A stretch of 64,000 nt of DNA from a virus, in the IMG/VR virus record IMGVR_UViG_3300031963_009342, positions 1 to 64,000 of that record. The stretch is one strand, 5' to 3'. A model generated the notes under the pieces. It saw only the letters and a list, made by a program, of their open reading frames with translations. It ran no database searches and had not been told where the DNA came from. This document shows positions 37,951 to 58,127 of this stretch, piece by piece (within the stretch, counting starts at the first letter, position 1; every line of letters begins with the position of its first letter). The position numbers were made by a program, and so were the translations under genes.

Positions 37951-38579
37951 AAATTATTGGTGTATCCGGATTTGCTAGAAGTGGTAAAGACTTGTTTACC
38001 AGTGTAGCCCAAAACATATTATCTGAACTGGGAATTAAATCGGAAAAGTATGCTTTGGCATATGAACTTAAAAATGATTTAAAAGATCTTATTAAGGAAA
38101 AAGTAAATATAGATGTTTTTACAGAAAATACTTCCGAAAAAAGTATTATACGACCTTTATTAGTTGCGTATGGCGATTTAATGCGTAAAACAAGCGAAGG
38201 CAAATATTGGACTTCTAAAGTAGAAAACAGAATCGTTGATAGTAAAGCTGACGTGGTATTTATAACAGATATTCGTTATGATGTTTATCCGGAAGACGAA
38301 TGTACATGGCTACAGAAGAAAATGTCTGGAAAATTAGTTCATATTACAAAATATAAACTGTCACCGATACCTTCAGGCAACCGTTTTAGTAAAAATAAAA
38401 TTACTAAAATATATGATTCGGCTCCAAATGAACATGAGTTATTAAACAATCCCAAGATTTTGAAACGTGCAGATGTTGCTTTGGAATGGCAAGACTTTTC
38501 GGATTATTGTGATATTAAAACACATCCAACAATTCGGACTACTGTATCGGACGTACTAAAAAAGATCAACGTAATTTAA
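37947..38579 (+). CDS. Deoxynucleoside monophosphate kinase
   Basis: IIGVSGFARSGKD, RPLLVAYG..MR and ITDIRY. Confidence 0.85.
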   Translation: MKIIGVSGFARSGKDLFTSVAQNILSELGIKSEKYALAYELKNDLKDLIKEKVNIDVFTENTSEKSIIRPLLVAYGDLMRKTSEGKYWTSKVENRIVDSKADVVFITDIRYDVYPEDECTWLQKKMSGKLVHITKYKLSPIPSGNRFSKNKITKIYDSAPNEHELLNNPKILKRADVALEWQDFSDYCDIKTHPTIRTTVSDVLKKINVI

Positions 38580-38847
38580 ACCGTTTTATTTCGTGATTAC
38601 TGCCGTGTGTGAAAATGATAATGTCATCGGTTGTTTTTGACTTAAAATATTCTAATAAACCGGTACAATTTGAATTTACAAATTGAATGTATATATTGTT
38701 ACATTCTTCCGATTTTTGAGCTTTTTTTTGTTTTTGACACGAACAGATTTTACCCACGCTTAATATACAAGAACGCAAATTTGATACGGACGGAATATTA
38801 TCAGATCCTATAAAATTTAATAATGCTTGTGGTCCACTTATATTCAT
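38566..38847 (-). CDS. Cys-rich hypothetical protein
   Basis: 93 aa with a CSC motif; last gene of the minus-strand operon. Confidence 0.6.
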   Translation of the reverse strand: MNISGPQALLNFIGSDNIPSVSNLRSCILSVGKICSCQKQKKAQKSEECNNIYIQFVNSNCTGLLEYFKSKTTDDIIIFTHGSNHEIKRFKLR

Positions 38848-39221
38848 AATAATTTTTTAACTATTAGGTATAGACTAAGGCTAACGATATAATTTATTGG
38901 AAATACCATACTAGCAAACACAAAATGATATTCCAAAACAAATGTTAACAAGTTTACTGAAAACAAAGTGGTCCAAAAACACAAACATATCGGACATGAC
39001 AGTAGTTTGGTTAAATAACCCGGATACATACCATAAATAAATTCTGGATAAGTAGACATTACATCAATTTCCGATTTATATCTATTAAACTCGTTTACTT
39101 TTAATAAATTTCTTGTATTGGTTAAATTAGCAATAGTTACAACAATATCACTTTCAAACCAAACGATCATTATAAATGTTACCCAACATATAATTGGAAT
39201 ATTAAAATCAGTAAAGCTCAT
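38844..39221 (-). CDS. Membrane protein with CxxC (DUF1360-like)
   Basis: LLSCPICLCFW and about three hydrophobic helices. Confidence 0.6.
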   Translation of the reverse strand: MSFTDFNIPIICWVTFIMIVWFESDIVVTIANLTNTRNLLKVNEFNRYKSEIDVMSTYPEFIYGMYPGYLTKLLSCPICLCFWTTLFSVNLLTFVLEYHFVFASMVFPINYIVSLSLYLIVKKLL

Positions 39222-39226
39222 ATAAT

Positions 39227-40429
39227 TTATAATAGTTTTTCACAATACCAACTATCCTCTATTTTAATTAAATTTTTACTATAATCAGATAGTTTATTTA
39301 TTTTTAATTTAAACATTTCATATTCAAACTCTCCAATTTGACCACTATCTTCTAACATCAATTGTAACATATTAAAGAATTCAAAACCTTGATTGGTCAA
39401 TTTAGTCGCGTCAAATTCAATTAATACGTCATTTGTTTTTTGATCGTCATATCTCTTCAATTTCTTTTTAAGATCAAATTTAGTATTTTTTTGTTCTGCT
39501 TGAATATAACGTTCATAAGGAACATCGGTATAGATTGAGTCACACCACGGTTCCAATAACATCAATTTATATTCATCACAGTTGCGAACTGTGAATCCTA
39601 CATCATATCGTTTTGGTACAATAGGCTTCATGGTATCATTATGTTTAACAAAATGACCCCATTTACGAATAAAGTTTCTAGCACTACGGTTGTTTTGAGC
39701 TAACCACTCATCGCTTTCTTTACCTACTGTAGTTAGCGTAGGATTATATCTACTACCTCTACAAGTCATGTGATAAACACATCCTTCCCAAGTTTGTACA
39801 AACTTATATCCATTCAACAGAAAACGATTAAAGATGTCACTGTCTTCTTTGCTTTGGGGTGCATATAGGTCATCATGGCCACCTATAGACTGAAAATCAG
39901 TCTTATAAATGGCCCAAGGCGCAAAAATTCCCTCTGTGGTTTTATCTTTTCTTGTTAAACGGGTATCATTGAACCATTTCAAGAATCCAGCTTCATTAAA
40001 CTCTTCTGGCTCGGTGCCAAATGCTTGTACAATTTTTTCTGGACCTGGAGGATGTAGAGGTGGTTCGATACGAGTCAAACTAACAATCGTGCCTGGCGCA
40101 ATATATTTTTCAACATATTTGTCAAAGTTAGGACAAGCATACATATCAGCGTGATATATCATTACTACATCGTTAGTAGCTACTTCATTGATGAGACGAT
40201 CATATAGGATTGTGTGACCCAATCTGGTTGGTCCATCATTACGAATGAATTTGAAGTGCGGATCTTTTTCTGCGGTTTCTTTACACCATTCTAGTGTGCC
40301 GTCATTACTAAAGTCGTCTGCAACACAGATTTCATGTTCTTTGTGACTTAAATTTTTACGAATAGCTTCGTAACTCCATTTAAGATATTTTAGGTTGTTT
40401 CTGCTTGGTTGAATAAAACTAATTTTCAT
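39227..40429 (-). CDS. Glycosyltransferase family 2
   Basis: ISFIQPSRN, ADDFSNDGT, HAD, GGHD..EDSD and YH. Confidence 0.9.
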   Translation of the reverse strand: MKISFIQPSRNNLKYLKWSYEAIRKNLSHKEHEICVADDFSNDGTLEWCKETAEKDPHFKFIRNDGPTRLGHTILYDRLINEVATNDVVMIYHADMYACPNFDKYVEKYIAPGTIVSLTRIEPPLHPPGPEKIVQAFGTEPEEFNEAGFLKWFNDTRLTRKDKTTEGIFAPWAIYKTDFQSIGGHDDLYAPQSKEDSDIFNRFLLNGYKFVQTWEGCVYHMTCRGSRYNPTLTTVGKESDEWLAQNNRSARNFIRKWGHFVKHNDTMKPIVPKRYDVGFTVRNCDEYKLMLLEPWCDSIYTDVPYERYIQAEQKNTKFDLKKKLKRYDDQKTNDVLIEFDATKLTNQGFEFFNMLQLMLEDSGQIGEFEYEMFKLKINKLSDYSKNLIKIEDSWYCEKLL

Positions 40430-40431: not shown

Positions 40432-41376
40432 TTAAAACTGTATTTTAATTTGTTCCATCAATTTACTATAATCATGTATACCTGTTTTTACAACACTATT
40501 GTCAATTACAGGAATAACATTAGCATTTGATAGCTTACGGAAATAACTATTAGGCCCAAAGTAATTAGGGCGTAATTCTTTTCCTTTATGAATATAACTA
40601 ATAACGGTGCCTCCGAAAAGTGACGATAATATTGAATTTCCACCACAAACTGTAACAAATTTATCACAATTAGCCATTATTTTTAATTGCGTTTCATTAT
40701 AACTGTACTTTGATTCTTTGACTAAATCATCGATCAGTATTACGTTATCAAAATATCTACATAAATCGAAGTCAGTTATAGTTCCAATATCTTCCACATT
40801 TGCTGTAATATCATGGTACCCTTGTTTTAATGAATTATATTCGTTTTGGTCTATTGTGAATTCTTTTTCTTTATTGGTAGCTCTTTTATAGATTACAATA
40901 TATCCCTTTTCTTTGAAATAATCAAACATTTTATAGAGACATGGTATATTAAAATAACCTAAAGGAATCTCACCGTGTTCCATATTATATTTGTTTGTTA
41001 TAAACACTATTGGTTTATCAAATTTATATTCTTCATTTTTATAGTAATCTTTAAATGGAGGACAAATCCATTGACTATAATCTAGAACTCCATTTACCTG
41101 ATATTGTTCTTGTTCTGTTAGATGATGATACTCTTTGCCCATAACCGCTAGCGAATTGTGGTGTATCCATTTATTTGGAACTCCTACTAAAGCGGCATCA
41201 TTATCAATTGTTCTAGATAAAAATTCTTCTTTAACATTATCGCAGAAGAAATAATATGGACGCATTCCTTTACTAGTAACAACACCTTCTAATTGTTTAT
41301 TTTGATGTAACCAATAAGCAAATGGTACTGCTAGTGCTAGTTCAATGCCAAATTCAGGATTTACTTTTAGTATCAT
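40432..41376 (-). CDS. Putative GT-B-fold glycosyltransferase
   Basis: EFGIEL..VP and CDKFVTVCGGNSILSSLFG are GT9-like elements; glycan-locus context. Confidence 0.45.
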   Translation of the reverse strand: MILKVNPEFGIELALAVPFAYWLHQNKQLEGVVTSKGMRPYYFFCDNVKEEFLSRTIDNDAALVGVPNKWIHHNSLAVMGKEYHHLTEQEQYQVNGVLDYSQWICPPFKDYYKNEEYKFDKPIVFITNKYNMEHGEIPLGYFNIPCLYKMFDYFKEKGYIVIYKRATNKEKEFTIDQNEYNSLKQGYHDITANVEDIGTITDFDLCRYFDNVILIDDLVKESKYSYNETQLKIMANCDKFVTVCGGNSILSSLFGGTVISYIHKGKELRPNYFGPNSYFRKLSNANVIPVIDNSVVKTGIHDYSKLMEQIKIQF

Positions 41377-41378: not shown

Positions 41379-42455
41379 TTACTCACATTTATCATCTAAA
41401 CAAACGTCTTCTTTTAGTACAGCGGCTGAAGCTAATCTTTTAGAATGTTTTTCAATTACATATTCTGACAGTGGTTCTTCTGATTTTTCCAAACCCAATG
41501 CTTTGCGATAACTAATTGATATTGGTCGTCCGTGATCTTTTTCAGCCATTTTATTCTTAGCTGATACTTGGCACATCTTACACATTTCCCACATATCAGA
41601 CTTTTTATTTATCTGCGCATTTCCTTTTTCATCAACGCCGGACCAATCGGTGAATGAATCGGGTAAAGTTTTTCTATTGTATCCATTTAATTTAAACAAT
41701 CTCGCAATAGCTGACCCATTTGAACAAGGCCAATATCCATCAAATGAATAATTTACTCCACATCTATTTGGAATATTACACTGTGGTATCATTTCTTGAC
41801 CGGAGTCATAGGGAGCTACTAAACTACAACGGTGAATCTCACCTTTTTCGTCTAGTGGTGTGAAATTTGTAACGGGTATACCTCTGAAAAAATTTACTCT
41901 TGATAAAATTTCTTTTAATGAAATCTGATTAGGCATTTCAAATACAATTTTATCTAAATTATTTATGATTTGATCTTTGGTTACATTGTTTTGATTTATA
42001 TATTCATTTATTGATCTGAATATCGGATTGATGTGGTCAATATATGCCAATTTTATTTTGTTAATTTTTTCAAATGGAAAATATTTAATAACACGATCTG
42101 GTGTATCTAAAGTACCAGCTTTTAACATCTTTGGATGTAAATTTGAAATAATTACGATGTTTGGTACTGGATCTCCCCATAGATTATCACGTAATCTATC
42201 TACTATATCTGCTATATTTGGGTGAGTCAAAGGTTCTCCACCAATAATGTGTATACGTTCAATTTTACCTTGTTTCTTACAGTCACTTATTAATTTATCA
42301 ACGTGATCCATTGTCACATTTGTATTTTCATAGTAATTCAATCCAGCCGCATTATCTTTATCAAATGGATCGATTAATGCATTAAAATTGCTATGTCTGT
42401 TGCAGCTTGGACAACTAAAATTACATTGTAATGTAACATCAAATTCTATATTCAT
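41379..42455 (-). CDS. Radical SAM enzyme with C-terminal Cys-rich (twitch/SPASM-like) region
   Basis: CNFSCPSC, GGEP and ISN; further Cys residues including WPC and CKMC. Confidence 0.9.
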   Translation of the reverse strand: MNIEFDVTLQCNFSCPSCNRHSNFNALIDPFDKDNAAGLNYYENTNVTMDHVDKLISDCKKQGKIERIHIIGGEPLTHPNIADIVDRLRDNLWGDPVPNIVIISNLHPKMLKAGTLDTPDRVIKYFPFEKINKIKLAYIDHINPIFRSINEYINQNNVTKDQIINNLDKIVFEMPNQISLKEILSRVNFFRGIPVTNFTPLDEKGEIHRCSLVAPYDSGQEMIPQCNIPNRCGVNYSFDGYWPCSNGSAIARLFKLNGYNRKTLPDSFTDWSGVDEKGNAQINKKSDMWEMCKMCQVSAKNKMAEKDHGRPISISYRKALGLEKSEEPLSEYVIEKHSKRLASAAVLKEDVCLDDKCE

Positions 42456-43111
42456 ACAGTTTTATTTATCATCTTCAGTACTTTAAAAGCCTCCGCATAT
42501 TTGCATTGAGCTTGTATTCCTCTAAATTTAGCTAGAACTTCTAAATTAGATTTTACATTAAGTCCAACTTTTTCATATTTTGAAATTTGACTTTTGTGAC
42601 ACATAGATGCTTCAATTTTTTTATCAAATGAATTGTCTATATTTTCATAATAATTAATATCCATTTGATTTTCTGTCATTCTCGATATCGGTATTTGTTC
42701 ATAACAAAATACATTTGGAACATAACGAGCCGCAGCCATCGTAGTTTTAAAAGTTGAAATGTGATCTTGATTCGCGTCACCGGCCCAGTGAGTATAGATC
42801 GTATCAACTTTGTGTTTTTTGATCAGACTTTCAAGTTTACTTACAGAGTCAAAACTAAATGGTACGTGTAAATCTTTAAATGGTAAAAATTCTACTTGAT
42901 CGCACATTAATACATTTGACGCATTAATAGTTTCTAGTTTGTTTTCATCTGCGCTTCTTAATAAAGTTCCATTTGTACCATCTACTGATTCGGTATTAGT
43001 CATACATACATAAACCACAAAATCTCCTTTTAATTTGTGATTATAAAGTGTTCCACCGCAACCGAATTCGATGTCATCCGGATGTGCTCCTATTGCCATT
43101 ACACGTTTCAT
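42452..43111 (-). CDS. PIG-L/LmbE family N-deacetylase
   Basis: AHPDDIEFGCGG, QDH, HKSQ and YAEAF. Confidence 0.92.
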   Translation of the reverse strand: MKRVMAIGAHPDDIEFGCGGTLYNHKLKGDFVVYVCMTNTESVDGTNGTLLRSADENKLETINASNVLMCDQVEFLPFKDLHVPFSFDSVSKLESLIKKHKVDTIYTHWAGDANQDHISTFKTTMAAARYVPNVFCYEQIPISRMTENQMDINYYENIDNSFDKKIEASMCHKSQISKYEKVGLNVKSNLEVLAKFRGIQAQCKYAEAFKVLKMINKTV

Positions 43112-43112
43112 A

Positions 43113-43802
43113 TTAATTTAAAATTATATTTTTGCTATTTTCTCCTTCATTAAACAATAGATCTATTATACACATATATGGTTTGAAGTCACCATATAAT
43201 TGTGTATATGTTGGATGATTATAATGTTGCCAGATCAATTCTATATTATTGTCTTTAAATTCTTGTTCATTAATATACCTCATAGATCCTGGTCCTGTAC
43301 CTGAAATGTATTTGGTAGCATTCAATTTTTTTAATAGATACATTATACGATCTCCGCCAACAACATCAATAGGACATAATTCAGAACAAAACACCACTTC
43401 TGTTTTAATATCCATAACATTTAAAAAGTATTTAATCAAAGTGTTGTTTAGATCCGATAATGTTTTGTGATTGGTTTTTAAAATAGATTCTATATCTGAA
43501 TAATATTTGTTTATATATTTAGATTTTCTATAAAAGTTTTTTATTAGATTTAAATGATTTTCATTCCAACCATTATAATTAACTTCTATTTCATTGAAAT
43601 TTTTAAATTCACTTTTTCCATTTAATGGCACAGTTAACCATTTAGGATCTCCTTCAGTTTTGATCAAATTTCTGTGACCAAAATGTTGTTTTCCTCTTGG
43701 AAATTGAACATTGTCAAAAATAACAAAAATATCACTTTTTGCGATTTTATCAAAAAATCCAAGCCAAGGTAGATAATTGGGTTGATGTATACTTACTATC
43801 AT
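43113..43802 (-). CDS. wbqC: WbqC family protein (putative glycyl/acyl transferase)
   Basis: IHQPNYLPWLGFF, DNVQF, RNLIK, WLTVP and YTQ..IIDLLFN. Confidence 0.92.
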   Translation of the reverse strand: MIVSIHQPNYLPWLGFFDKIAKSDIFVIFDNVQFPRGKQHFGHRNLIKTEGDPKWLTVPLNGKSEFKNFNEIEVNYNGWNENHLNLIKNFYRKSKYINKYYSDIESILKTNHKTLSDLNNTLIKYFLNVMDIKTEVVFCSELCPIDVVGGDRIMYLLKKLNATKYISGTGPGSMRYINEQEFKDNNIELIWQHYNHPTYTQLYGDFKPYMCIIDLLFNEGENSKNIILN

Positions 43803-44941
43803 ACGATTTTATTAATTACATCCGCGACATAATCTACTTGTTCCATCGTCATTTCAACATACATAGGAATAGATAAGTGTCTAGTTAATAATCCATCGGC
43901 GGATTTATATGTTTGATTTTTTGTATATGGTTCAAATACTTTTTGTTGATGACAAGCGGGCCAATAAGCATTTGCGGTGGGTATATTATATTCTAAATAC
44001 AATTTTTTACAAAGTTCCGATCTTTCATTTAAAGTAGTAGATTTTGGTAATTCTATAATGTAATGCCACCATGTATTTACTATGTTACTTGGTACTTCAA
44101 CGAATTTTATTTTAGGGTTAACGATTTTTTCTCTATATCTTTTTGCTATTATATTTCTCTTTTCGACAAATTGATTGGCTCTTTTTAATTGACTGATGCC
44201 TAAAGCTGCAACCATTTCGGTCATTTTATAATTTGACGAGATAAATTCACAACTTACTCCAAAATCTACACCATTTACTGGAGTTGGATTTCTAACAGCC
44301 CCGTGATTTCTAAGTGTTTTGCAAGTTTCTGCGAATTTTTCATCATTGGTGGTGATTATTCCACCTTCACCTGTTGTTATAATCTTAGTAGCAAATAATG
44401 AGAAACAACCGGCATATCCTAAATTTCCTGAATGAATATTATCAATAGTAGAACCAACGGCGTGAGAAGCATCTTCAAACAATAAAAGGCCGCGTTCGTC
44501 ACACAATTTCTTGATGTTATAATAATCAGGTGTGATTAGTCCGGCCATATGAACCAACATTACACCAGCGACATCCGAATCTATAGCTTTTTCTATTATT
44601 TCCGCATTCAAACAATGTGTATTTTCATCAATATCGACGATTAATGGAATATTGTTGGATCTTACTATAGCACTTACACTAGCTATAAAAGTTTGAGTGG
44701 GTACTATGATTTTTTTTCCAACTAAACCAGATGCTCTTAACGCAACTTCTAAACAAGTCCCGCCGGAACAAGTAGCTATAGCGTATTTAGTACCACAATA
44801 CTTTGCAAATAAATTTTCAAACTCGGATACATACTTTGATTGTACCAGTGCTTCTGTATTCAGAATGTCTGATATTCTTTCTAATATTTCCTTATGATCT
44901 TCTTTTGGAATATAAGGTTTTGTTCTTGATAATTTATTCAT
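43799..44941 (-). CDS. DegT/DnrJ/EryC1/StrS sugar aminotransferase
   Basis: FE..FA.Y.G, EDASHA, FSLFATKIITTGEGG and NYKM. Confidence 0.95.
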   Translation of the reverse strand: MNKLSRTKPYIPKEDHKEILERISDILNTEALVQSKYVSEFENLFAKYCGTKYAIATCSGGTCLEVALRASGLVGKKIIVPTQTFIASVSAIVRSNNIPLIVDIDENTHCLNAEIIEKAIDSDVAGVMLVHMAGLITPDYYNIKKLCDERGLLLFEDASHAVGSTIDNIHSGNLGYAGCFSLFATKIITTGEGGIITTNDEKFAETCKTLRNHGAVRNPTPVNGVDFGVSCEFISSNYKMTEMVAALGISQLKRANQFVEKRNIIAKRYREKIVNPKIKFVEVPSNIVNTWWHYIIELPKSTTLNERSELCKKLYLEYNIPTANAYWPACHQQKVFEPYTKNQTYKSADGLLTRHLSIPMYVEMTMEQVDYVADVINKIV

Positions 44942-45753
44942 AACGTATTTTTAATATAGTCAAAAAATTCTGGTAGATTTTCTTTTGTACTTGTAAATTT
45001 TCTACCTAACTTTAACGGTGATAATAACAAATGTTCATCTATAAATGGAGACATAGTTCCGTTTTCAACGATATTTGCTTTTTTATTTAAAAACTGGCTT
45101 ATTTCTTCAATAAGTGTTTTTGAACTATAAACATCTTGATTAACAACGTTGTAACTATCTTTTGTATTAAATTTATTTGTGGTAGACATTTCTACTAGTA
45201 AATCAACTATATCATTGACCCAAATAAAACTCAATAGTTTATTACCAGCTCCAGAAACTTCTACTGGTTTGTTATTTACTATATTTCTTATATAATAACT
45301 CATTCTGGGTCTGGGACAATCTTGACCGACAATGTATGGTGGTCTTATTACCACGTAGTTTGTATCAATACTTTTGATTATGTTTTCACATTCTGCTTTT
45401 TCTACACCATAGTCCCCAAATGCCTTTAATCCTCCAATTGTCATATCTTCATTGTATGATAAACAATTAGAATCCTTATAAGCAGCTGCACTACTTATAA
45501 AGATATATTTTTGATCGGGTTTTAACCAACTTTTAAGATGTAAAGCTTGAGATGGTTTGAATAAACAAAAATCTAAAGTTACATTATAATCATTTTCAAT
45601 TGTCAGTGGATTGTTTCGGTCAAACTTAATTATTTTTACTTTATCTGGACCAGTGCCAGATCTATTGAGAACGGATACACTGGCTAATTTAGTTAACTCA
45701 TATGCTACTTTTTTTCCAACGAATCTGTTACCACCTATAACCAATATTTTCAT
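44938..45753 (-). CDS. NAD-dependent epimerase/dehydratase (SDR)
   Basis: GGNRFVG, YIFISS and YGVEK. Confidence 0.88.
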   Translation of the reverse strand: MKILVIGGNRFVGKKVAYELTKLASVSVLNRSGTGPDKVKIIKFDRNNPLTIENDYNVTLDFCLFKPSQALHLKSWLKPDQKYIFISSAAAYKDSNCLSYNEDMTIGGLKAFGDYGVEKAECENIIKSIDTNYVVIRPPYIVGQDCPRPRMSYYIRNIVNNKPVEVSGAGNKLLSFIWVNDIVDLLVEMSTTNKFNTKDSYNVVNQDVYSSKTLIEEISQFLNKKANIVENGTMSPFIDEHLLLSPLKLGRKFTSTKENLPEFFDYIKNTL

Positions 45754-46616: not shown

Positions 46617-47170
46617 AATTTAGCTACTAAAATTTCTCCTTTTGTCGGTAGATTCTCTTCGTTTATATTTTGATTCAGACTATATATTCTTTTTTGAGTG
46701 AAAATTTTGAAGTCTGGATTTATTTCTTTCAATATATTAGATATATCTTCTTTAGAAAGATTTTTAGCCCATCTTTCAAACGAATGATAATCATCTATCA
46801 ATATAATAATATTTTTATTTCGACAATACTTTTTGATTATTTTCAATTCTTCTAATAAAGGCGCATCTATATTTTGATCGGAAGCTCCGTGTGCATCTAA
46901 CCAAAAAGTTATATCTTGATATATTTTTTCATTTTCGAAAAAACTATTCAAAAAATCAACAGAATTCTGTTTAAAAATCTTAACCTTGTGATTATTGTAT
47001 ATATTTTTGGCATTTGAGACATACGATTCGTCGATATCACAACTGTATATTTTTTCAAAGCCACAGTCCAATGCTACTTTAATTCCGTATCCCAACCATA
47101 AACCTGTTTCTACAAATATATTTTTTTTGTATTGATTTAAAACAATTGGGTATAATGTATTGTATATCAT
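46613..47170 (-). CDS. Putative class I SAM methyltransferase
   Basis: FVETG...G, YSCD, FWLDAH and ILIDD. Confidence 0.65.
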   Translation of the reverse strand: MIYNTLYPIVLNQYKKNIFVETGLWLGYGIKVALDCGFEKIYSCDIDESYVSNAKNIYNNHKVKIFKQNSVDFLNSFFENEKIYQDITFWLDAHGASDQNIDAPLLEELKIIKKYCRNKNIIILIDDYHSFERWAKNLSKEDISNILKEINPDFKIFTQKRIYSLNQNINEENLPTKGEILVAKL

Positions 47171-50112: not shown

Positions 50113-51049
50113 AAATTTTATTCCATTTTTGTAACCACATATTCTCCGTATATAACTTTCTATAATTATCTTTGCAGACATTAGAACAGTAATTATAAAA
50201 CTTTTTATCATCTCTCAGTTTAATTGTTAACTGATTTGCTTTTTCTATATCTCCTACATCGACCGATAAATCTGGATGTAAAATTTGTTGTGTGTCTAGT
50301 CCTTTATATCCTATACACGGAACGCCTAAATAAGCACAGTTGAGAGCGAATGTGCCAGCTGCATGTGTACGCATTAAGTGTATACCAATATTAAAATTAG
50401 CAAGTGTTTTAATCCACTCGTTCCACATCATATATGGCAGATGATGTAAACCTGGGAATTGTTCTTCGTTTTGTATCTTACGTCCCATACTTGGGATGAA
50501 TATAGGTTTATCAAAATTTCTCGCTACAAAGTAACTATCTACACCACCGTACCAACTACAGAAGTTACCACCTATAATGGGCATGCCATTATTTTCACGG
50601 GGTACGTCTTTAATTGTATCTTCGATCATAAGAGATTGCAGATTGAACGTCGGTTTTTTAAATATACCTTTAAAGTATGCAATATCACTTTTATTGTGTG
50701 TTAATAGAAAATCCATCTCACTCAGGAAGTTGATATAATTAACTTGATTGATATAATCGTAATCTTGATAATACCAAGTCGGACCTTCCTGCATTACTGT
50801 TACTTTTTTGCCAATTGATTTAACTAAATCCAACAATCTTGAACTGTCATAATTTTCTAATTTTTTTGGTAGTATAACAATTACTAAATCGTATCGAGGA
50901 ACACCTTTAAATGGTTTGCTTAAAATATAGTCTATAGGTAGATGATCAGCATCAAGTGCAATTTGCCACGAAAACTCTGTACGGCAGTTTTCAAATGTTC
51001 TTGGTATCTTACCAGTGTGACCGTTTTGACTGACAAAACAAATATTCAT
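50099..51049 (-). CDS. Putative GT-B glycosyltransferase
   Basis: AAGTFALNCAYLGVPCIG C-terminal GT-B pattern; context. Confidence 0.6.
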   Translation of the reverse strand: MNICFVSQNGHTGKIPRTFENCRTEFSWQIALDADHLPIDYILSKPFKGVPRYDLVIVILPKKLENYDSSRLLDLVKSIGKKVTVMQEGPTWYYQDYDYINQVNYINFLSEMDFLLTHNKSDIAYFKGIFKKPTFNLQSLMIEDTIKDVPRENNGMPIIGGNFCSWYGGVDSYFVARNFDKPIFIPSMGRKIQNEEQFPGLHHLPYMMWNEWIKTLANFNIGIHLMRTHAAGTFALNCAYLGVPCIGYKGLDTQQILHPDLSVDVGDIEKANQLTIKLRDDKKFYNYCSNVCKDNYRKLYTENMWLQKWNKIYEQI

Positions 51050-52032
51050 AGTTTATTTTTAAAGTCTTCGTATGTATAAAATTTACCGGTGTTATTAAAC
51101 AGTATATTTAAATTGTGTTGAGACATTTCTTTAAATATCTGCCACCAATCACCTTTTTCTTTTCCACAAAATCCCCTGGGATTATTTTCATTTACAATGT
51201 ACATTCGCTTGTTCGGATGTCGTCTAGCGTGTACCTTTAAAACATTTTTAAATATAATTTGAATATATTGATCTCCCTGTATCTTCTTAGCCATCAATGA
51301 TAAACTTTCATCGTCATTGTGTATGAAACAAGGTGGTATATTAACTCCACTTTTAATTAAATCACTTGTTAATACCAAACAAGATCCATCGATTTTTGGA
51401 TAATTAATTGATTGTATGTCTAATTCTTCTATTTTTGAATTAATTTGATTCATTTGTTCGATTGACATACAAGACTTTGCTTGATTTATATTATCAATGT
51501 CTTTATCGTCATATCGATGATTAATAAAATTAGGATGTACGGTTACGTCCCAACTGTTGTCCCACATCTTTCTATCAGCGAAACACGCTATGAATCTGTA
51601 AATTTCTTGTTTTCTTACAACGGGCGTTAGTTGTTCCAAAGATACTATAGCTTCTTTAGGAAAAAGACTGTCTGTTTCTCCCCAAATCAAATAGTCGGCT
51701 AGATAAGAATATTTAGTGTTAAATTCTCTTCTATAATTTGTTTGTGTATAAAATTCATTGTCATTATCAATAATTTTATAAAATTTATTAAACGTATTAG
51801 GTATTCTATGATATTGATCGTTAAATTTTTGTATTAGTTCTTTTTTGTTTATTTTAGTGGTATCTATTTTTTCAAAAAACTGAGAAACATTAAAAGCAAA
51901 GTCTAGGTATATATTTGATGGATTGTCTACAGTGGATAATAAATTTAATAAACCATCTATATAAGTTGACATCATTTCTATTTCATAGAACATAACGTGA
52001 ACTCCAATTGCATATTTTTGCTTTATAACCAT
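51046..52032 (-). CDS. Putative GT-A-fold glycosyltransferase
   Basis: YLIWGETDS (DxD-like) and DD..H elements; context. Confidence 0.45.
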   Translation of the reverse strand: MVIKQKYAIGVHVMFYEIEMMSTYIDGLLNLLSTVDNPSNIYLDFAFNVSQFFEKIDTTKINKKELIQKFNDQYHRIPNTFNKFYKIIDNDNEFYTQTNYRREFNTKYSYLADYLIWGETDSLFPKEAIVSLEQLTPVVRKQEIYRFIACFADRKMWDNSWDVTVHPNFINHRYDDKDIDNINQAKSCMSIEQMNQINSKIEELDIQSINYPKIDGSCLVLTSDLIKSGVNIPPCFIHNDDESLSLMAKKIQGDQYIQIIFKNVLKVHARRHPNKRMYIVNENNPRGFCGKEKGDWWQIFKEMSQHNLNILFNNTGKFYTYEDFKNKL

Positions 52033-52033: not shown

Positions 52034-52651
52034 TCATTTCTTTTTTAGAACGATTAAAGACCCAGGCCAACCTTCATCAATACATTCTTCTATTATATTG
52101 TAGTAATCTAATACAGTTCTGTATCTGATTCTTTCCTTAAAATCGTGTATATACACGATACCATCTTCTGTTAAATAGTCAAGTGCTTTATAAGCACAAA
52201 ATACTCTTGCTCGTCCATCAACTAATACTTTATTGAATTTTTTATTATGTGTGGATATACTGTTAATATAATTTACGTAGCAATGCCAATCGTCTCCACC
52301 GCGTGTTTGAGCATAATATATTCCATCTTTAACCTGTACATTATTGGTTAATTTTAATAAATTTCGAGATTCTTTGTCTAAGTGACTATCCAAATTTATG
52401 GGATGATTGGTTACATGTTTATAAATTACATTTTTAATATTTCTATTTGTCAATACATTATTAACAGTATTATACCAGTTAAAATCGTGTTCTACTGAAT
52501 AGTATTCCTTAACATACTTACAGAAGTTATAGGTACTTCCTCCTGATCCCCACTCAAATACACAATCTGTTGGGGACAGATATTTAATTAAACAATCTAT
52601 TTGAGTTGCACTCATCATTATCTCTGGATGTTGATCTTTAAATAAGCTCAT
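52034..52651 (-). CDS. Class I SAM methyltransferase
   Basis: FEWGSGGST, SVEHD, VLVDGRAR and YIHD. Confidence 0.8.
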   Translation of the reverse strand: MSLFKDQHPEIMMSATQIDCLIKYLSPTDCVFEWGSGGSTYNFCKYVKEYYSVEHDFNWYNTVNNVLTNRNIKNVIYKHVTNHPINLDSHLDKESRNLLKLTNNVQVKDGIYYAQTRGGDDWHCYVNYINSISTHNKKFNKVLVDGRARVFCAYKALDYLTEDGIVYIHDFKERIRYRTVLDYYNIIEECIDEGWPGSLIVLKKK

Positions 52652-52652: not shown

Positions 52653-53663
52653 TTAATTTATAATGTTTCTAACTACGTGCTGTATAATATATTCTGGCGA
52701 CGACAGTTCGTTAAATGTTTTTCTTTGATTTGAAATTAAATATTCGGATCGATTGTCATAATCAATTAAGTTTGATTCTATAATTTGATTTATATCTGAA
52801 AAATCATCTTTGCAATGTAAACAAGATGTGTCTTTATTGTAAATAAACGGACTTGTTTTAATATTTTGTATTGATGGCTTTATAATTACGGTGCCTGTTA
52901 ATAAACATTCTATTTCTCTAATATTAACTTCGCCGTATCCAAATGGAGAAATACAAAACTTACTATCTGACAAAACATTAAAGTATTCTTCTTTACTTAA
53001 TTTTCCTGTTTTTTCTGTAGTAATAACATTATATTTAAGTTTGTTTACTTCCTCAAATAATTTTAACCTCGATTTATTATAATAACCATCTGTGCGAATT
53101 CCGTGTTCATAATTTTCTTTAGATAATCCAATTAACACAGCAACGTCATATTTTTTATCTTTTTTAATAGTGCCCCAGTTAAACCCACATCCATATGTAT
53201 TCAACCAATTCGTACCACTGCTTACTAGTTTATCATTTAATAATGATAGATCTTCTTTGTTAATTTTGTATCCACTAATATCTGGACCCCAAAACCATCT
53301 TCCATTTGGATAAGGATTTAAATAACTTTCTTTATTTTTGTGTAGGACATTTTTAGCTAGTTTTAAACCAGGAAATTCTTTAAAAACTTCCCATACCCCC
53401 AATAATGTAGATGAATCTTGTCCGTCAAATAAAACATACGGTTTATCAAGATTTTTAATAAAATTAATACCAATTTCAATTGACTGATCAAGTGGTAGTT
53501 TTTTATTAATAATAGATGCCTGACCTACAAAATATATATCCGCTTTATCTGCGTCTTCTACAAATTCAATTCCATAATCACGAAAAGCTTCAGTTGAATA
53601 AAGATACGGTCTAAATGTCGTTTCGTTTCTATGTTTTTCTAATTCTAGAATTTTTATTTTCAT
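52653..53663 (-). CDS. Putative glycosyltransferase (GT-B / exostosin-like C-terminus)
   Basis: EYF..LSDSKFCISPFGYGE..REIE..G..IKP. Confidence 0.7.
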   Translation of the reverse strand: MKIKILELEKHRNETTFRPYLYSTEAFRDYGIEFVEDADKADIYFVGQASIINKKLPLDQSIEIGINFIKNLDKPYVLFDGQDSSTLLGVWEVFKEFPGLKLAKNVLHKNKESYLNPYPNGRWFWGPDISGYKINKEDLSLLNDKLVSSGTNWLNTYGCGFNWGTIKKDKKYDVAVLIGLSKENYEHGIRTDGYYNKSRLKLFEEVNKLKYNVITTEKTGKLSKEEYFNVLSDSKFCISPFGYGEVNIREIECLLTGTVIIKPSIQNIKTSPFIYNKDTSCLHCKDDFSDINQIIESNLIDYDNRSEYLISNQRKTFNELSSPEYIIQHVVRNIIN

Positions 53664-53739: not shown

Positions 53740-54387
53740 TTACTTTATAGTATATCCTTTATTTTCCTCTTGGGTAAATAATTGATTATAATTTATATTT
53801 GTTTGTCTTTGTTTTTCTATGCTTTTTTCGTGAATTATAGCATAATCTTTTTGTGGTGGTATAAATGTATAACTTTTATAACCTTCAACTTTTTCATGTA
53901 GTCTCCGTTGATATCTAATATTTGAACTATTGCGGTATAAACGTGATTGATAATCAGGAAAATTAATCATTCCATCATGAAGCTGCCATCCCCACATTTG
54001 TATATCTTGCTGAGTAACTCCTATAAAATAGTTTAGTCTTGGTAACCATATAACTTCATTTTCATCATTCGATTCTAATATAACATCAATATTTTCAATT
54101 AAACCGTCAGTCGGTAATTCGTCTGCATCCAATTGAAATATCCACTTTCCTTTACATAATTCAATTCCATAATTTTTATGAGCGCCATAGTTTTTATCTA
54201 ACTTATGTTGATAAAAATTTATTTGATTTTTATACTTTTGTATAATTTCAACAGTATCTTGATTATCTGAATAATCATCAAGAAGAATAATTTCATGATT
54301 ATATTTTTTGTATTTAATTAATTTAGATAATAGTTTTTCTAAACTATCGGTTTCATTGTGACTTGTTACTAAATAAGACAAAAACAT
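53740..54387 (-). CDS. Glycosyltransferase family 2
   Basis: LDDYS, WIFQLDADE, PDYQ.RL and LHE. Confidence 0.9.
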   Translation of the reverse strand: MFLSYLVTSHNETDSLEKLLSKLIKYKKYNHEIILLDDYSDNQDTVEIIQKYKNQINFYQHKLDKNYGAHKNYGIELCKGKWIFQLDADELPTDGLIENIDVILESNDENEVIWLPRLNYFIGVTQQDIQMWGWQLHDGMINFPDYQSRLYRNSSNIRYQRRLHEKVEGYKSYTFIPPQKDYAIIHEKSIEKQRQTNINYNQLFTQEENKGYTIK

Positions 54388-54388: not shown

Positions 54389-55729
54389 TTAAAGAATTTT
54401 TAATTTTGGCAAAGTAATTTGATTTGATTCGTTGGATGTGTTAGTCATAGCTTTTAATTTTGGCAGTACAAACTGATTTTGTACAGCAAACTGAGGTACG
54501 TACTTGTCAAGTATGTCCCATAAACGTTTGTCCATAGACGGAATACTAAATTTCTCAGCGTTTTCCTTACGTAGAAGTTCGGCATTTTTAGTAAACTTAT
54601 CACTTTTACGAGCGAAATAAATTTGTTTCATTTTATCTTCTGCTAATGAATAAGCTACTTTGAACCATTTGCTTTCTTTGATAATCCATTGATTGACTGA
54701 TTTTTTATCTACATCAACAAGAGTACCTGGTAATAAATTAGCATAAGTCGGATTTAGATAATCTAATTGACCACTCCAATTTGGTGCTAATAATGGTTTT
54801 CCACTTAGAGTAGCCAATAACAATGGATGTCCATAACCTTCACCGTGAGTAAAAGATACGTGAGCTATAACTTTTTCATGGTTTAACAACGCATTCATTT
54901 CTTTTTCACTAAGTTCGCCGTGTAACAAATATACACTTGGTACATTACCGCCAATACTATCACGAATCTTTTTAATCTTACTCAACATGTCGAATCTGTC
55001 TACGGTAGAGTAACTATGACCACTCGTTTTAACAATCAAACATGGACGATCATTTTCCGATTGATTTTTGAAGGCACTACAAAATGTTTTGATCAGATTA
55101 CCAATGTCTTTACGATCATTATACAATCCACCATGAGTCCACTGACCAACAAATAAAAACGCACTAGATTCTTTTATCTTAGATAAAGCATTTTCAACAG
55201 TTTGTATTTTATCTTCTGTTTTTTTGAAAATGTTGGTATCGGCCCCCCAAAAACACACTTCAATTGGTTTTTCTACTTGAACAGGAACTTGTTGACCATT
55301 TTCTAGTTGTTTGGCCATTTTAATTTCCGAGAAAGTTTTCTTTACATGATTAGATAGACCGATTGTTAAATTCATTTTATTAACGCCTTCGATCCAACTA
55401 CCGGGTGGAATGGTTGTTTCAATACCAGCCGTCATACCGATATTATATTTGCCAACAGGATGAAATTCTTCTGGAATTGTTAACTGTATAAAAACATCTG
55501 GTTGTCTATCTAAGTTTCCTTGAAGAAATTTAGTTGCTAATAATTTATCTTCTGGATCGGTTAAATCTTCAAGAAAACGTTTGCTTTGACAATTGCCCCA
55601 TCTAGTGGGCGCTATTTTTACATCAAATTTATCATAACGAATAATGCTTTTTGCAACTGTTGTTGCCCAGTCACCATATCCGCTACGGTTAAATACTGGT
55701 CCTGAAATTAGACATAGTGGTTTACTCAT
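54389..55729 (-). CDS. Glycosyltransferase family 4
   Basis: RSGYG, GIET, FLFVGQW, RKDI, GEGYG.PL and WSGQLD. Confidence 0.88.
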   Translation of the reverse strand: MSKPLCLISGPVFNRSGYGDWATTVAKSIIRYDKFDVKIAPTRWGNCQSKRFLEDLTDPEDKLLATKFLQGNLDRQPDVFIQLTIPEEFHPVGKYNIGMTAGIETTIPPGSWIEGVNKMNLTIGLSNHVKKTFSEIKMAKQLENGQQVPVQVEKPIEVCFWGADTNIFKKTEDKIQTVENALSKIKESSAFLFVGQWTHGGLYNDRKDIGNLIKTFCSAFKNQSENDRPCLIVKTSGHSYSTVDRFDMLSKIKKIRDSIGGNVPSVYLLHGELSEKEMNALLNHEKVIAHVSFTHGEGYGHPLLLATLSGKPLLAPNWSGQLDYLNPTYANLLPGTLVDVDKKSVNQWIIKESKWFKVAYSLAEDKMKQIYFARKSDKFTKNAELLRKENAEKFSIPSMDKRLWDILDKYVPQFAVQNQFVLPKLKAMTNTSNESNQITLPKLKIL

Positions 55730-55730: not shown

Positions 55731-56423
55731 TTATTTATTAAATTGTTTTGTATCTCGTTCGCTAACTAATTGACTATATTTTTTATTTGGTGTAGGTATT
55801 CCTCCCAAACTATTATAGAGTGCTTCCATTTTGCTCATTTGTATCTGAGCTATGTCAGCTTTTTCTCCTTTTTTAACATCTGTACTACCAAATCCACCTT
55901 CGCCTCTAGTGGTAGAATCTAATTCATTTACCAATATGAATTCTACATCTTCTACTCTGGTTACTTTGAGTTGACAAATTTTATCGCCTTTTTTATAGAT
56001 CTTGTTGTTATTAACAATTCCTTCTAATAGACTATCTTTATTAATTTTAAAATCTTCTGGTTGCCATATATATTTGAAACGAAGTAATACTTCTCCGCGA
56101 TAATCCGCGTCAATCAACCCAATACAATTAGCTAATACTAGATTGTATTTACTCACGCTACTACGAGGAAATGCTAGAATATCATAATCAATAGCGGTAT
56201 ATATAAACCCACTGTATTGTCTTACTTCTTGTACAGCTAGTTTAAGATTTGTTTTATACTGAATATAATCAATTCGTTTATATGTACCGTTGTCATACAT
56301 TTCTCCAACGATTTCTGGTTCACTTGTAGTAATTACATCATATCCAGTAGCTCGATTCGTACCTTTCTTGGGTAGACGTTCTACATCTTGATAATCTTCG
56401 TTTTTTAATACTTGAATTTTCAT
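55731..56423 (-). CDS. dut: Trimeric dUTPase
   Basis: TGYD, PRSS, GLIDADYRGE, KICQL and RGEGGFGST. Confidence 0.95.
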   Translation of the reverse strand: MKIQVLKNEDYQDVERLPKKGTNRATGYDVITTSEPEIVGEMYDNGTYKRIDYIQYKTNLKLAVQEVRQYSGFIYTAIDYDILAFPRSSVSKYNLVLANCIGLIDADYRGEVLLRFKYIWQPEDFKINKDSLLEGIVNNNKIYKKGDKICQLKVTRVEDVEFILVNELDSTTRGEGGFGSTDVKKGEKADIAQIQMSKMEALYNSLGGIPTPNKKYSQLVSERDTKQFNK

Positions 56424-57385
56424 GAAACTGTTTTCTTAATAGCTTCTAAATTTACAACGTGTAAATCAAATCCCAATTTGCCGTTTGGTAGATTTTTAAT
56501 ATCATAACCATTTTCAGTAAAAATGTCAAATGTTTTAACGGGTGTAAAGTTATTTAATGTGAAATCCATTGCTTTAATAAATTGATCACACATATTTTTA
56601 CTATTGATTCCGCCTTCGTTTATAGCCCATTTACGACCTTCGACACCATATTGTTCACGTATTTCACTACCAATAACATACCAATACCCAATAGCATCAG
56701 CGATATCTTTATAATTAACTAAGTCATCCATGATGTAAGGAGTTGGAGGACTGCCTTGTAGATTTTGTACTTTAGCCCACACAGGCTTTGCCCATACCCC
56801 GTGTTTAGTGTATCGTCCTGTAACATTTGTACCGAATTCTAAATTGAATTCTACAGGTTTACCTTCGTCAGTAACAATTCCCAATTGATCTTGTAAACCT
56901 CCTGTTACGGTGGCTATTACCGGTGTACCACACATGATACTCTCTGCAATACTTAAACCAAATCCTTCATTTGAACTTACATTCACGGTAACATCTGCTA
57001 AGTTATAGAACGCCACCATTTCTTCGGGGGTTCTACGCGTTTCATCTAATACAACTTTATATTCTGGACATATTGCTTGAATTGTAGCTACGAGATCTGT
57101 ACCGGCTTCACATACTTTGTCTGTATGCATTATCAAAGCACATTTTTTAGCTTCTTCTTGATCAATTGAAGCACAGAATGATTTAAATGCTAGTATTAGA
57201 TTTGCTGGATGTTTACGATGTGCGTTTCTACTATTGAATGCTACGATAAATTTATATTCTTTATCGCCGAGTAATTCTTTTTTTAATTTTAAAACCGACG
57301 AATCTCCTTTTGGTAGCGGTTTAAATTCGTTTGGATTGATACCATGTGGTACATAATGTAATAGATGTTTTTCTTGTACTGGCAT
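56420..57385 (-). CDS. Glycosyltransferase family 4, C-terminal half
   Basis: YVPHG, RN..RK, EGFGLSIAE and GGLQDQ; AGGA SD 10 nt upstream. Confidence 0.85.
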   Translation of the reverse strand: MPVQEKHLLHYVPHGINPNEFKPLPKGDSSVLKLKKELLGDKEYKFIVAFNSRNAHRKHPANLILAFKSFCASIDQEEAKKCALIMHTDKVCEAGTDLVATIQAICPEYKVVLDETRRTPEEMVAFYNLADVTVNVSSNEGFGLSIAESIMCGTPVIATVTGGLQDQLGIVTDEGKPVEFNLEFGTNVTGRYTKHGVWAKPVWAKVQNLQGSPPTPYIMDDLVNYKDIADAIGYWYVIGSEIREQYGVEGRKWAINEGGINSKNMCDQFIKAMDFTLNNFTPVKTFDIFTENGYDIKNLPNGKLGFDLHVVNLEAIKKTVS

Positions 57386-57402
57386 AATAAATGTTTCCTA
57401 AA

Positions 57403-57915
57403 TTAGTCTGTTAACTTAATACAATTTTCTGGTCCTAACACTTGTTCAACAATATTGTGAGTTTGTTTGCTAATGGAAAACAAAGCATCACAGCTTTGAT
57501 AAAACGGTTTGTTCCACATTGGGTATGGTAAATCGTCCCATATTGTCAAATATGTTAATGGAATTTTGCTACGAATTTGATGTTCTATATTATAGAGCCA
57601 ACCCCAAAAACGAGGATCTGTAAAGTGCATAATTGCATCGGGTTTTTCTAATGCCATAATTTGATACAACACTTCTTCATCTCCGTATCCATCCACAGGG
57701 TATAGTTTTAGATAATTATCTGTTCTACCATTTAACTTATCACAAGCATCCTTCATATCTACTATCTTTCCTTGTTCAGGATGTTTAATAGCACCGGCAA
57801 TTTGTACCCAATCATAATGATGAAGTGTGCCTAATACCAATTCTCTACTCATTGTAGCCACACCACTATGCATTCTTAAATCATCGCTCAATAATAATAT
57901 TTTTTTCTTTTTCAT
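57403..57915 (-). CDS. Glycosyltransferase family 4, N-terminal half
   Basis: KILLLSDD..SGVA, EKPD..FTDP, IWD and ISKQ. Confidence 0.8.
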   Translation of the reverse strand: MKKKKILLLSDDLRMHSGVATMSRELVLGTLHHYDWVQIAGAIKHPEQGKIVDMKDACDKLNGRTDNYLKLYPVDGYGDEEVLYQIMALEKPDAIMHFTDPRFWGWLYNIEHQIRSKIPLTYLTIWDDLPYPMWNKPFYQSCDALFSISKQTHNIVEQVLGPENCIKLTD

Positions 57916-58127
57916 TTAGAATCCTTTGATAATGAAAATGGAGCATTGAAACTTAACCTTTGACAAATACTTTCGCTGATTTCAGAACGAAATTTGGAAT
58001 CGTTCAAATATCTTTCCAAACATTTATTGACAAAATCTTGAAAAGATATTTTACCTCTTATATTTAGTTCTTTAAACTGGTTATATAACTCTTGGTTAAG
58101 TTTTACCGTTGTAACAAATTGATCCAT
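57912..58127 (-). CDS. Ribbon-helix-helix DNA-binding protein
   Basis: TTVKL (beta strand), NQELYNQFK (helix), SFQDFVNKCLERYL (helix). Start moved to ATG 58127. Confidence 0.7.
   Translation of the reverse strand: MDQFVTTVKLNQELYNQFKELNIRGKISFQDFVNKCLERYLNDSKFRSEISESICQRLSFNAPFSLSKDSK

Follow-up and report, generated by a model that had tools for sequence, protein, structure and literature searches.

What does a tailed phage build with some 20 kb of glycosylation genes, and on which molecule is the product placed? We address this question for an operon in a 64,000-nucleotide stretch of viral DNA (positions 1 to 64,000 of IMG/VR record IMGVR_UViG_3300031963_009342; hereafter the window), whose gene content is that of a large tailed phage. 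On the minus strand, open reading frames (ORFs) abut or overlap from 38566 to 59060, and both GC and AT skew are reversed across the same span. The operon encodes nine supported glycosyltransferases (GTs) and one lead, three methyltransferase-like proteins, a short NDP-sugar dehydrogenase and an amino-sugar cassette. A sequence-only reading of the window had placed an abutting operon at 38566-58127, with about ten GT-like genes, and had interpreted it as an autonomous cytoplasmic system that glycosylates virion proteins. The operon is confirmed but continues beyond that end to 59060, where it takes in a PD-(D/E)XK nuclease gene, and the tenth transferase (40432-41376) stands as a lead only.

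Tentatively, and with a little less than an even chance of being right, we propose that the locus is a virus-autonomous cytoplasmic glycosylation system in two layers. The first would be a vertically inherited core whose enzymes, a two-polypeptide GT4, a GT4-like enzyme of 446 amino acids (aa) and a small GT2, build the conserved inner part of a glycan on an acceptor supplied by the phage. The second would be a mosaic, often-exchanged island contributing nucleotide-sugar synthesis, glycan extension by up to six or seven further transferases, and methylation by three methyltransferase-like proteins, yielding strain-specific outer structures. New here are this architecture of conserved core and variable island, the virus-only core spanning host phyla, the finding that lipid-carrier machinery is missing genome-wide, and the bearing of published DNA chemistry, which demotes a DNA route.

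A conserved core and a variable island

Families were assigned to the 27 operon ORFs with Pfam, PHROGs and NCBIfam. Eleven ORFs had no family match, PHROGs and NCBIfam giving nothing useful for them, and these were aligned with homologues from related loci and taken into PDB profile searches or structure prediction. Searches of IMG/VR returned 59 loci with the family B DNA polymerase (PolB; 60084-62612, beyond the operon) as query and 68 loci with the 446-aa GT. All loci share one block order: PD-(D/E)XK nuclease, small protein, N-terminal GT4 domain, C-terminal GT4 domain, dUTPase (in the nearer clade only), 446-aa GT and 215-aa GT2. We define these genes, other than the dUTPase, as the core. 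Its median identity is 71-85% across about 115 loci, similar to that of PolB in the same contigs, and by this comparison of predicted proteins the core is as conserved as the DNA polymerase.

The same organization extends to cultured phages. By PolB the nearest is Microcystis phage Mel-JY01 (44% identity), and the window phage, Mel-JY01 and Flavobacterium phage immuto (host Flavobacterium sp. LMO8) form one broad lineage, with the glycan-gene module and the virion and replication backbone in common. Both cultured phages keep the order nuclease, GT4, GT and GT2, followed by variable aminotransferase, methyltransferase, epimerase and GT genes, and core GT identity between phages of the two hosts is 36-55%; the hosts belong to different phyla.

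The first gene of the operon (58170-59060, minus strand, as are all operon genes below) encodes a Cas4/RecB-like PD-(D/E)XK nuclease (Pfam PDDEXK_1, 1e-20). It always adjoins the GT core, in about 115 loci as well as in immuto and Mel-JY01, but probably serves replication or recombination and not glycan synthesis. The small conserved protein that follows (57912-58154) has 102 homologues and no Pfam or PHROG match, and its true start is probably an internal methionine near 58127. The ribbon-helix-helix identity earlier suggested for it is a plausible candidate assignment, from a beta-alpha-alpha sequence pattern and a ParG match that reaches E 0.22 only.

Two polypeptides then make up the first core transferase. 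The N-terminal Rossmann domain of a GT4 is encoded on its own at 57403-57915 (55% identical to immuto and Mel-JY01), and the C-terminal, donor-binding domain at 56420-57385 (Pfam Glycos_transf_1, 2.4e-12, and GT4-conflict, 6.7e-8; PHROG 2170). Because this split at the interdomain linker recurs in about 93 loci and in Mel-JY01, with a fused form of 455-498 aa in 23 distant loci and immuto, the pair reads as an inherited, functional two-piece enzyme and not as an error. The 446-aa GT4-like enzyme (54389-55729; a weak Pfam match, PHROG 2170 at 6.7e-10, and no match in a single-sequence PDB search) is the most conserved glycan gene, being 77-89% identical where the PolB of the same contigs is 72-74% identical, and about 40% identical to its counterparts in immuto and Mel-JY01. 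The 215-aa GT2, of GT-A type (53740-54387; Pfam Glycos_transf_2, 4e-18), occurs in 112 loci and in both cultured relatives. The earlier count of two GT4 enzymes, one of them split, therefore holds, as does that of two GT2 genes, the second of which lies at 39227-40429.

Within the core lies a 230-aa dUTPase (55731-56423; Pfam, PHROG and NCBIfam), which the sequence-only reading overlooked and which has a predicted sigma70-like promoter at 56501-56529. The insertion is restricted to the clade of the window and is not found at this place in immuto, Mel-JY01 or the distant group. A role for it as a dCTPase-like part of a DNA-modification route was considered and rejected, as the gene is a clade-specific insertion and matches ordinary dUTPases.

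The distribution of the core points to viruses. Homologues of the 446-aa GT number more than 7000 in metagenomes, and a search of 185,579 prokaryote species (one genome each) found it in no isolate genome, only in contigs of metagenome-assembled genomes (MAGs). The phage module is present on most of these contigs, and those that bear it (L184-L204; some of 184-248 kb) are labelled Saccharibacteria, Methanobacteriota, Woesearchaeota, Gracilibacteria, Pelagibacter and others, and are probably phage contigs mis-binned into MAGs. Since no isolate genome has the 446-aa GT and the MAG bins are implausibly diverse, we read the core as a virus-only gene set.

Beyond the 215-aa GT2, the island varies from about 5.5 kb (L091 and L093) to 19.5 kb in the window. 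The smallest islands hold a homologue of the ORF at 50099-51049, the 400-aa GT2 and the short dehydrogenase. In L060, a locus whose PolB is 98% identical to that of the window, the core is 83-96% identical and most recognisable island genes only 32-43%, which argues that islands are exchanged by recombinational replacement; the exception is the 50099-51049 homologue, at 88% identity. At its far end the 400-aa GT2, two small genes and a dNMP-kinase-like gene serve as the island's anchor. The two small genes (38566-39221, without family match) encode a 93-aa protein and a 125-aa membrane protein (38844-39221) and are kept at the operon end in L091-L093. The 125-aa protein is conserved, with about three transmembrane segments and a C-P-I-C-x-x-x-W motif; we considered it as a GtrA-like flippase and set this aside, as Pfam gives it no family support.

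Island enzymes and candidate sugars

The island adds GTs of several folds. An exostosin (GT47)-like enzyme of GT-B fold is predicted at 52653-53663 (AF2 pLDDT 85; top Foldseek matches EXT1/EXT2 at 4.7e-8, then other GT-B enzymes) and a GT-A fold enzyme at 51046-52032 (AF2 pLDDT 90.7), for which Foldseek places LH3, AvpGT, COLGALT1, Mnn9, LARGE1, TarP and SpsA as neighbours at 6e-8 to 3e-6. PDB profile searches had found no match for these two, which were then resolved by structure prediction, nor for 40432-41376. A GT4-like enzyme of GT-B type is encoded at 50099-51049 (profile match to BshA over the C-terminus, 1.3e-3; NCBIfam BshA, 0.01), and its homologue is widely kept, even in the smallest islands. 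The 314-aa product of 40432-41376 is unassigned, with no match in Pfam, PHROG, NCBIfam or PDB, and is possibly GT9-like, a lead drawn from a viral Atlas cluster in which 30% of members carry Glyco_transf_9. Three of the four divergent GTs named in the sequence-only reading are thus supported, and the fourth stays at the level of this lead.

A paralogue pair at 47779-48528 and 48525-49271, 21% identical to each other, keeps an invariant DxD, N-x-G and H. The profile matches are to glycogenin/GT8 enzymes only and weak (E 0.02-0.08), which is consistent with GT8-like enzymes and gives qualified backing to the two GT8/34-like genes proposed earlier. The island is closed by the 400-aa GT2 (39227-40429; Pfam, 1.9e-11), which is 47% identical to immuto gp169 and 84% identical in L091 and L093, and which is held at the far island end in relatives.

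Three methyltransferase-like proteins had also been claimed. For one, at 46613-47170, the profile (A5) matches only class-I methyltransferase folds (best 1.4e-3); the other two are leads. The ORF at 52034-52651 is class-I SAM methyltransferase-like through an Atlas neighbour cluster (Methyltransf_24 in 21% of members, score 0.94), and that at 47212-47766 has motif I in common with it. Together they suggest O- or N-methylation of the glycan. A promoter scan places a sigma70-like site (47176-47203, minus strand) between the latter gene and 46613-47170. The dehydrogenase at 49273-50211 is real (Pfam; NCBIfam NDP-sugDHase, 2.9e-50), though a short form with N-terminal and central domains and no C-terminal domain; homologues of 247-279 aa at the same locus position also lack that domain, so the short form is conserved. 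Its start is probably at 50112, and its product may be a uronic acid.

The six-gene sugar-modification cassette at 41379-46616 is likewise confirmed by Pfam and NCBIfam, and encodes a PseB/FnlA-like 4,6-dehydratase, a short-chain dehydrogenase/reductase (SDR), a PseC-like aminotransferase, a WbqC-like protein, a PIG-L deacetylase and a radical SAM enzyme. The best NCBIfam matches are PseB (1.7e-51), PseC (8.5e-72) and BshB1 (3.4e-18), all under the equivalog cut-offs (PseB 175 bits against 408; PseC 242 bits against 423), which marks them as related enzymes and not equivalogs. No nonulosonic acid synthase or CMP-activating enzyme was found among the 27 operon ORFs with Pfam, PHROG or NCBIfam, and the product is therefore not pseudaminic acid. 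The dehydratase and aminotransferase should convert UDP-GlcNAc to a UDP-4-amino-4,6-dideoxy-HexNAc, from which the PIG-L enzyme could remove the 2-N-acetyl group; the WbqC-like, radical SAM and SDR proteins may modify the sugar further. A literature search on WbqC function yielded nothing. The glycan would then contain a UDP-GlcNAc-derived 4-amino-4,6-dideoxy-hexosamine, possibly de-N-acetylated and further modified, together with a uronic-acid-type sugar.

The acceptor of the glycan

No enzyme of the operon has a transmembrane segment by hydropathy; only the 125-aa product of 38844-39221 does, and no multi-transmembrane protein of initiating-transferase type occurs in the operon. In five related genomes (G005, G004, G001, immuto and Mel-JY01; three are complete, G005 measuring 295.8 kb with a CheckV completeness of 100%, and G004 is 89% complete) we found no PF02397 (Bac_transf), PF00953 (WecA/MraY type; Glycos_transf_4), PF01943 (Wzx; Polysacc_synt) or PF04932 (Wzy_C/ligase) protein, ABC-type exporters not being part of the genome-wide search. 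The same family searches were positive in 10-13 of 14 control reference genomes. The earlier statement that flippase, Wzy and undecaprenyl initiating transferase are lacking is thus borne out, in the operon and in the five genomes. Parts of a gtrABC serotype-conversion system were not seen either, the 125-aa membrane protein having no GtrA match and both GT2 enzymes having no transmembrane segments.

We favour a phage-intrinsic acceptor because the core is inherited across host phyla and found only on phage DNA; an acceptor specific to one host is argued against by the 36-55% identity of core GTs between Flavobacterium and Microcystis phages. Among phage-intrinsic acceptors a virion protein is the most likely, a combined claim to which we give somewhat less than an even chance. 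In the clade of the window, the virion proteins concerned would include proline-free Gly-Ser/Thr collagen-like fibres that have an adjacent GT4 of their own.

The window contains such a fibre gene at 3-1361 (plus strand), which runs off the window start and encodes about 95 Gly-Ser/Thr-Ser/Thr triplets without proline, then a C-terminal domain, with matches to PHROG tail fibre families. A GT4 gene lies two genes downstream at 1645-2658 (plus strand; Pfam Glycos_transf_1, PHROG 2170). A GT4 near the fibre had been noted before, with the fibre drawn as 1-2658, a span that in fact includes the GT4 gene itself. Of 16 related loci, 14 have a homologue of this GT4 placed after a G-X-Y ORF; in G005 the homologue follows a 1652-aa fibre-like ORF without G-X-Y repeats, and in Mel-JY01 the homologous domain is part of a 1226-aa protein that fuses an FkbM methyltransferase to a GT and is encoded directly downstream of a Gly-Ser/Thr repeat gene and a structural protein. 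This context is good evidence, at the level of gene neighbourhood, that fibres are glycosylated in the lineage; it belongs to the fibre-linked GT4 and not to the big operon. A GT gene beside a structural gene, the mycobacteriophage-type trait, is thus seen at 1645-2658, and not for the 20-kb operon, which sits in the replication module.

The repeat genes themselves are easily lost from view. Contigs break repeatedly inside the Gly-Ser/Thr repeat (L132-L147, the starts of G002 and G008, and bases 1-3 of the window), and such fibres are therefore systematically truncated or missed in metagenomic assemblies. The Mel-JY01 annotation places hypothetical genes on the other strand where the repeat lies (68-1113, plus strand).

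The promoters bear on timing. A sigma70-like promoter (TTGACT-N16-TAAGAT; 59067-59094, minus strand) heads the operon, back-to-back with and divergent from one that heads the PolB unit (TTGACA-N16-TATAAT; 59054-59081, plus strand), and a motif of the operon type also precedes an ATPase gene at 29385. A generic promoter scan was uninformative in this AT-rich window (122 found against 123 expected), whereas TTGAC-N16-19-TAnnAT is enriched in it (15 against 6.8 +/- 2.4 expected, with no shuffle reaching 15). A candidate late-promoter motif, TATTTATA, to which TATAAATA is the reverse complement, precedes the plus-strand tail and late genes at 4232, 6798, 9279, 16904 and 27794 by 10-25 nt (sites at 4200-4207, 6779-6786, 9267-9274, 16880-16899 and 27775-27782, plus strand) and was not found on the coding strand of the glycan operon. 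We also considered TATAAATA as a T4-type late promoter and rejected it, since it shows no overall enrichment (22 against 17.7 expected) and only the TATTTATA orientation stands directly upstream of tail genes. From these motifs we infer that the operon is expressed early or in the middle phase, along with the genes for replication; the sugars and transferases would then be ready when the late proteins appear.

Several points weigh against glycosylation of virion proteins by the operon. It sits in the replication and nucleotide module beside the dNMP kinase, dUTPase, nuclease and PolB, under sigma70-like promoters and without the late motif, and nothing ties it to virion proteins. Gly-Ser/Thr repeat genes are present in G001, G002, G008 and Mel-JY01, but immuto (complete), G005 (complete) and G004 (89%) have the core without them, so that the Gly-Ser/Thr fibre is not the sole or universal acceptor; this co-occurrence comparison weakens the specific link between locus and fibre that the sequence-only reading had drawn. 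We found no published data on virion glycosylation for immuto or Mel-JY01 and no direct evidence of a glycan on any virion protein of the lineage. The matches behind 40432-41376, the three methyltransferases and the GT8-like pair are weak, and initiating transferases and exporters of the host could still be used by the phage. What stands of the earlier interpretation is a set of soluble enzymes, no lipid-carrier genes and a phage-intrinsic core; the early-type promoters, the replication-module setting and the weakened fibre link tell against it.

The borrowing of host enzymes underlies the strongest competing explanation, in which the operon remodels the host envelope by building or modifying a lipopolysaccharide (LPS), capsule or S-layer glycan on the host lipid carrier with the host's initiating transferase, flippase and ligase. 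The pairing of nucleotide-sugar synthesis with several GTs in one operon is that of Wzx/Wzy- or ABC-type surface polysaccharide loci, the island is hypervariable in the manner of O-antigen loci, promoters of early type would suit host takeover, the 400-aa GT2 has weak NCBIfam matches of EpsD/PglI type, and the GT-rich clusters of P-SSM2, S-SCSM1 and S-SCSM2R have been read as host-surface loci (PMC12801897), the usual proposal for such clusters in large cyanomyoviruses. However, all the enzymes are without a membrane anchor, no initiating, flipping or polymerising function was found in the three complete relatives, and the family is not in any isolate bacterial genome searched. Moreover, the three core GTs are kept at about 40-55% identity though the hosts lie in different phyla and their envelope glycans are unrelated. 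We consider such remodelling, which would block superinfection or alter cell-surface properties, unlikely.

Less probable still is a cytoplasmic acceptor outside the virion, with the island providing the donors: a non-structural phage protein, a host protein (for inactivation or host takeover), a small molecule, or a metabolite derived from nucleotides. The placement of the operon within early replication and nucleotide genes, the solubility of the enzymes and the match of the split GT4 C-domain to a Pfam family of GT4s in conflict systems (6.7e-8) are all compatible with it. Yet eight to ten transferases and the methyltransferases imply a large glycan, unusual for an inactivating modification or a metabolite, and the fibre-linked GT4 points to structural proteins as acceptors in this lineage.

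The remaining candidate is DNA, with core GTs placing sugar on a modified base and the island diversifying the glycan; the sequence-only reading had ranked it below virion proteins, and the ranking holds. It draws on the genes flanking the core (dNMP-kinase-like gene, dUTPase, PD-(D/E)XK nuclease and PolB), on the presence of T4 alpha-glucosyltransferase among the GT-B neighbours of the 52653-53663 model, and on phage DNA GTs having been recruited from GT-A and GT-B enzymes of LPS and teichoic-acid type, adding up to three sugars (bioRxiv 10.1101/2023.12.21.572611; PMC13326640). Known glycosylated pyrimidines need either a thymidylate-synthase homologue, or a methyltransferase with a TET-type dioxygenase (same sources). 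No PF00303 homologue was found in G005, which has the core, and those in 8 of 13 other relatives look like ordinary ThyA (E 1e-80 to 1e-97 over the whole model). No Tet_JBP protein (PF12851) was found in the five genomes, in a search run without a positive control, and no hydroxymethylase-like gene was recognised among the annotated genes of the window. The most telling observation comes from immuto, whose virion DNA by LC-UV-MS contains canonical dA, dC and dT, with formyl-preQ1 alone standing in for dG (bioRxiv 10.1101/2023.04.13.536721), despite an orthologous core. DNA glycosylation is therefore unlikely and, with nine or ten transferases exceeding any known DNA glycan, we give this explanation very little weight.

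Neighbouring genes and comparison with known systems

Two gene blocks precede the operon in the window. Tail and baseplate genes occupy 3-19.6 kb (collagen-like fibre, tail tube and baseplate hub), and a replication and nucleotide block follows at 19.7-38.6 kb (SSB, UvsX-like recombinase, exonuclease, DnaB-type helicase, ribonucleotide reductase, clamp-loader subunit and dNMP-kinase-like gene). Upstream of the clamp-loader gene are a homologue of the UV-damage endonuclease UvdE (34397-35314) and a DNA methylase-like ORF (35909-36922). The product of 33181-34365 has a Pfam match (9e-20) to DruA of Druantia, a family familiar elsewhere as part of an anti-phage defence of bacteria. The ORF at 3001-4170, which separates the fibre-linked GT4 from the tail tube gene, begins with a 5'-3' deoxyribonucleotidase/HAD-like portion and continues into one that resembles Pol-beta-type nucleotidyltransferases (PHROG 2643 and 36119, and a weak match to Pfam NTP_transf_2). 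A cytidylyltransferase-like ORF among the tail genes (4789-5700), with a weak match to NMN adenylyltransferases and a longer homologue at a similar place in Mel-JY01 (11243-13162), may serve NAD salvage and not sugar activation.

A relative with a PolB 98% identical to that of the window (L001) has a second glycan cluster within 10 kb after PolB (12537-21561), comprising an NTP_transferase, a clamp-loader ATPase, another GT4, an Anp1/GT2-like enzyme, a methyltransferase-like protein and a GT11; glycan genes in the lineage thus lie on both sides of the polymerase. The window ends at 64000, short of an equivalent cluster, and its first ORFs after PolB are unlike those of L001.

Phage GT clusters are usually filed, without test, as host-surface modifiers or DNA protectors. 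Here, comparison narrows the options through a virus-only core, conservation at the level of the polymerase, unrelated hosts, the lack of lipid-carrier machinery and the unglycosylated DNA of a cultured relative. If virion proteins are indeed targeted, phage particles coated with glycan would be a common component of aquatic viromes, with a bearing on adsorption, host range, particle stability and grazing, and the island would act as a phage 'serotype' locus. The cultured relatives immuto and Mel-JY01 make the question of a virion glycan directly testable.

Moraphages, freshwater jumbo phages with heat-shock genes (DnaK/DnaJ) in all members, have four core GT orthogroups whose function was left undecided (PMC12619734). 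We considered whether the present lineage is that group and rejected this, as HSP70 was not found in G005, G004, G001, immuto or Mel-JY01; the moraphages are a parallel case in a separate lineage. The large cyanomyoviruses P-SSM2, S-SCSM1 and S-SCSM2R are, likewise, large aquatic myoviruses with clusters of a dozen or more GTs and nucleotide-sugar epimerases, of untested function (PMC12801897). Those clusters are accessory, some with export or Kdo genes, whereas here three GTs are core, conserved at PolB level and shared by phages that infect Bacteroidota and Cyanobacteria. Clusters for the glycosylation of DNA (T4 alpha- and beta-GT; the 5hmC-glycan biosynthetic gene clusters, bioRxiv 10.1101/2023.12.21.572611; the arabinosyl-5hoC of RB69 and DLP3, PMC13326640) resemble the locus in having GT-A and GT-B enzymes beside nucleotide-metabolism genes, expressed before packaging, with sugars that differ among relatives. 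They need a base-hydroxylation route, however, and none was found among the annotated genes of the window or in the complete relative G005.

Mycobacteriophages of the Che8, Corndog and Myrna type provide a precedent in which glycans on capsid and tail tube were seen by mass spectrometry (Freeman et al. 2023, as summarised in PMC12619734). There, soluble phage GTs, some with methyltransferases, reportedly modify structural proteins of the phage itself within the cytoplasm, without export machinery, much as we propose here. They have two to four GTs inside the structural module, while the present operon has nine or ten with sugar-nucleotide synthesis, lies in the replication module, has a GT core that is lineage-wide, and is known from genes alone.

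The split GT4 also has analogues. In the split GT-B transferases Alg13/Alg14 and pairs of the Cps14F/G type, the N- and C-terminal Rossmann domains are carried on two polypeptides. Those enzymes are GT1/GT28-like, act on lipid-linked acceptors and have one half anchored in the membrane, whereas here both halves are soluble GT4 domains and fused orthologues exist.

Giant viruses glycosylate autonomously, as in the capsid glycans of chlorovirus PBCV-1 and the fibril glycans of Mimivirus with its bacillosamine and viosamine pathways, and they build these glycans in the cytoplasm on virion surface proteins, collagen-like ones included. The phage locus resembles them in that rare amino-sugar synthesis (4,6-dehydratase, aminotransferase and modifying enzymes), soluble GTs and methyltransferases are all virus-encoded; the likeness is one of enzyme classes, giant viruses being eukaryotic viruses with an unrelated virion architecture. 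For the fibre, the nearest comparison is with the Bacillus exosporium protein BclA and the cuticle collagens of invertebrates, whose G-X-Thr repeats lack hydroxyproline and whose triple helix is decorated with O-glycans on Thr, which in cuticle collagens stabilise it as well; a methylated, N-acylated 4-amino-4,6-dideoxy sugar is part of the glycan of BclA. The collagen-like repeat type and a similar set of sugar enzymes recur in the phage, although BclA and cuticle collagens are cellular proteins and the likeness to the phage fibre is one of repeat type. More broadly, and as a distinctly more speculative proposal than the two-layer system itself, a very widespread lineage of aquatic phages (marine and freshwater, of several host phyla) might carry self-contained cytoplasmic protein O-glycosylation as core genes, with a hypervariable island through which the glycan coat of the virion differs from strain to strain. 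Many members would place this coat on proline-free Gly-Ser/Thr collagen-like fibres, Ser/Thr glycosylation replacing hydroxyproline in stabilising the triple helix, and the system would be the phage counterpart of giant-virus fibril glycosylation.

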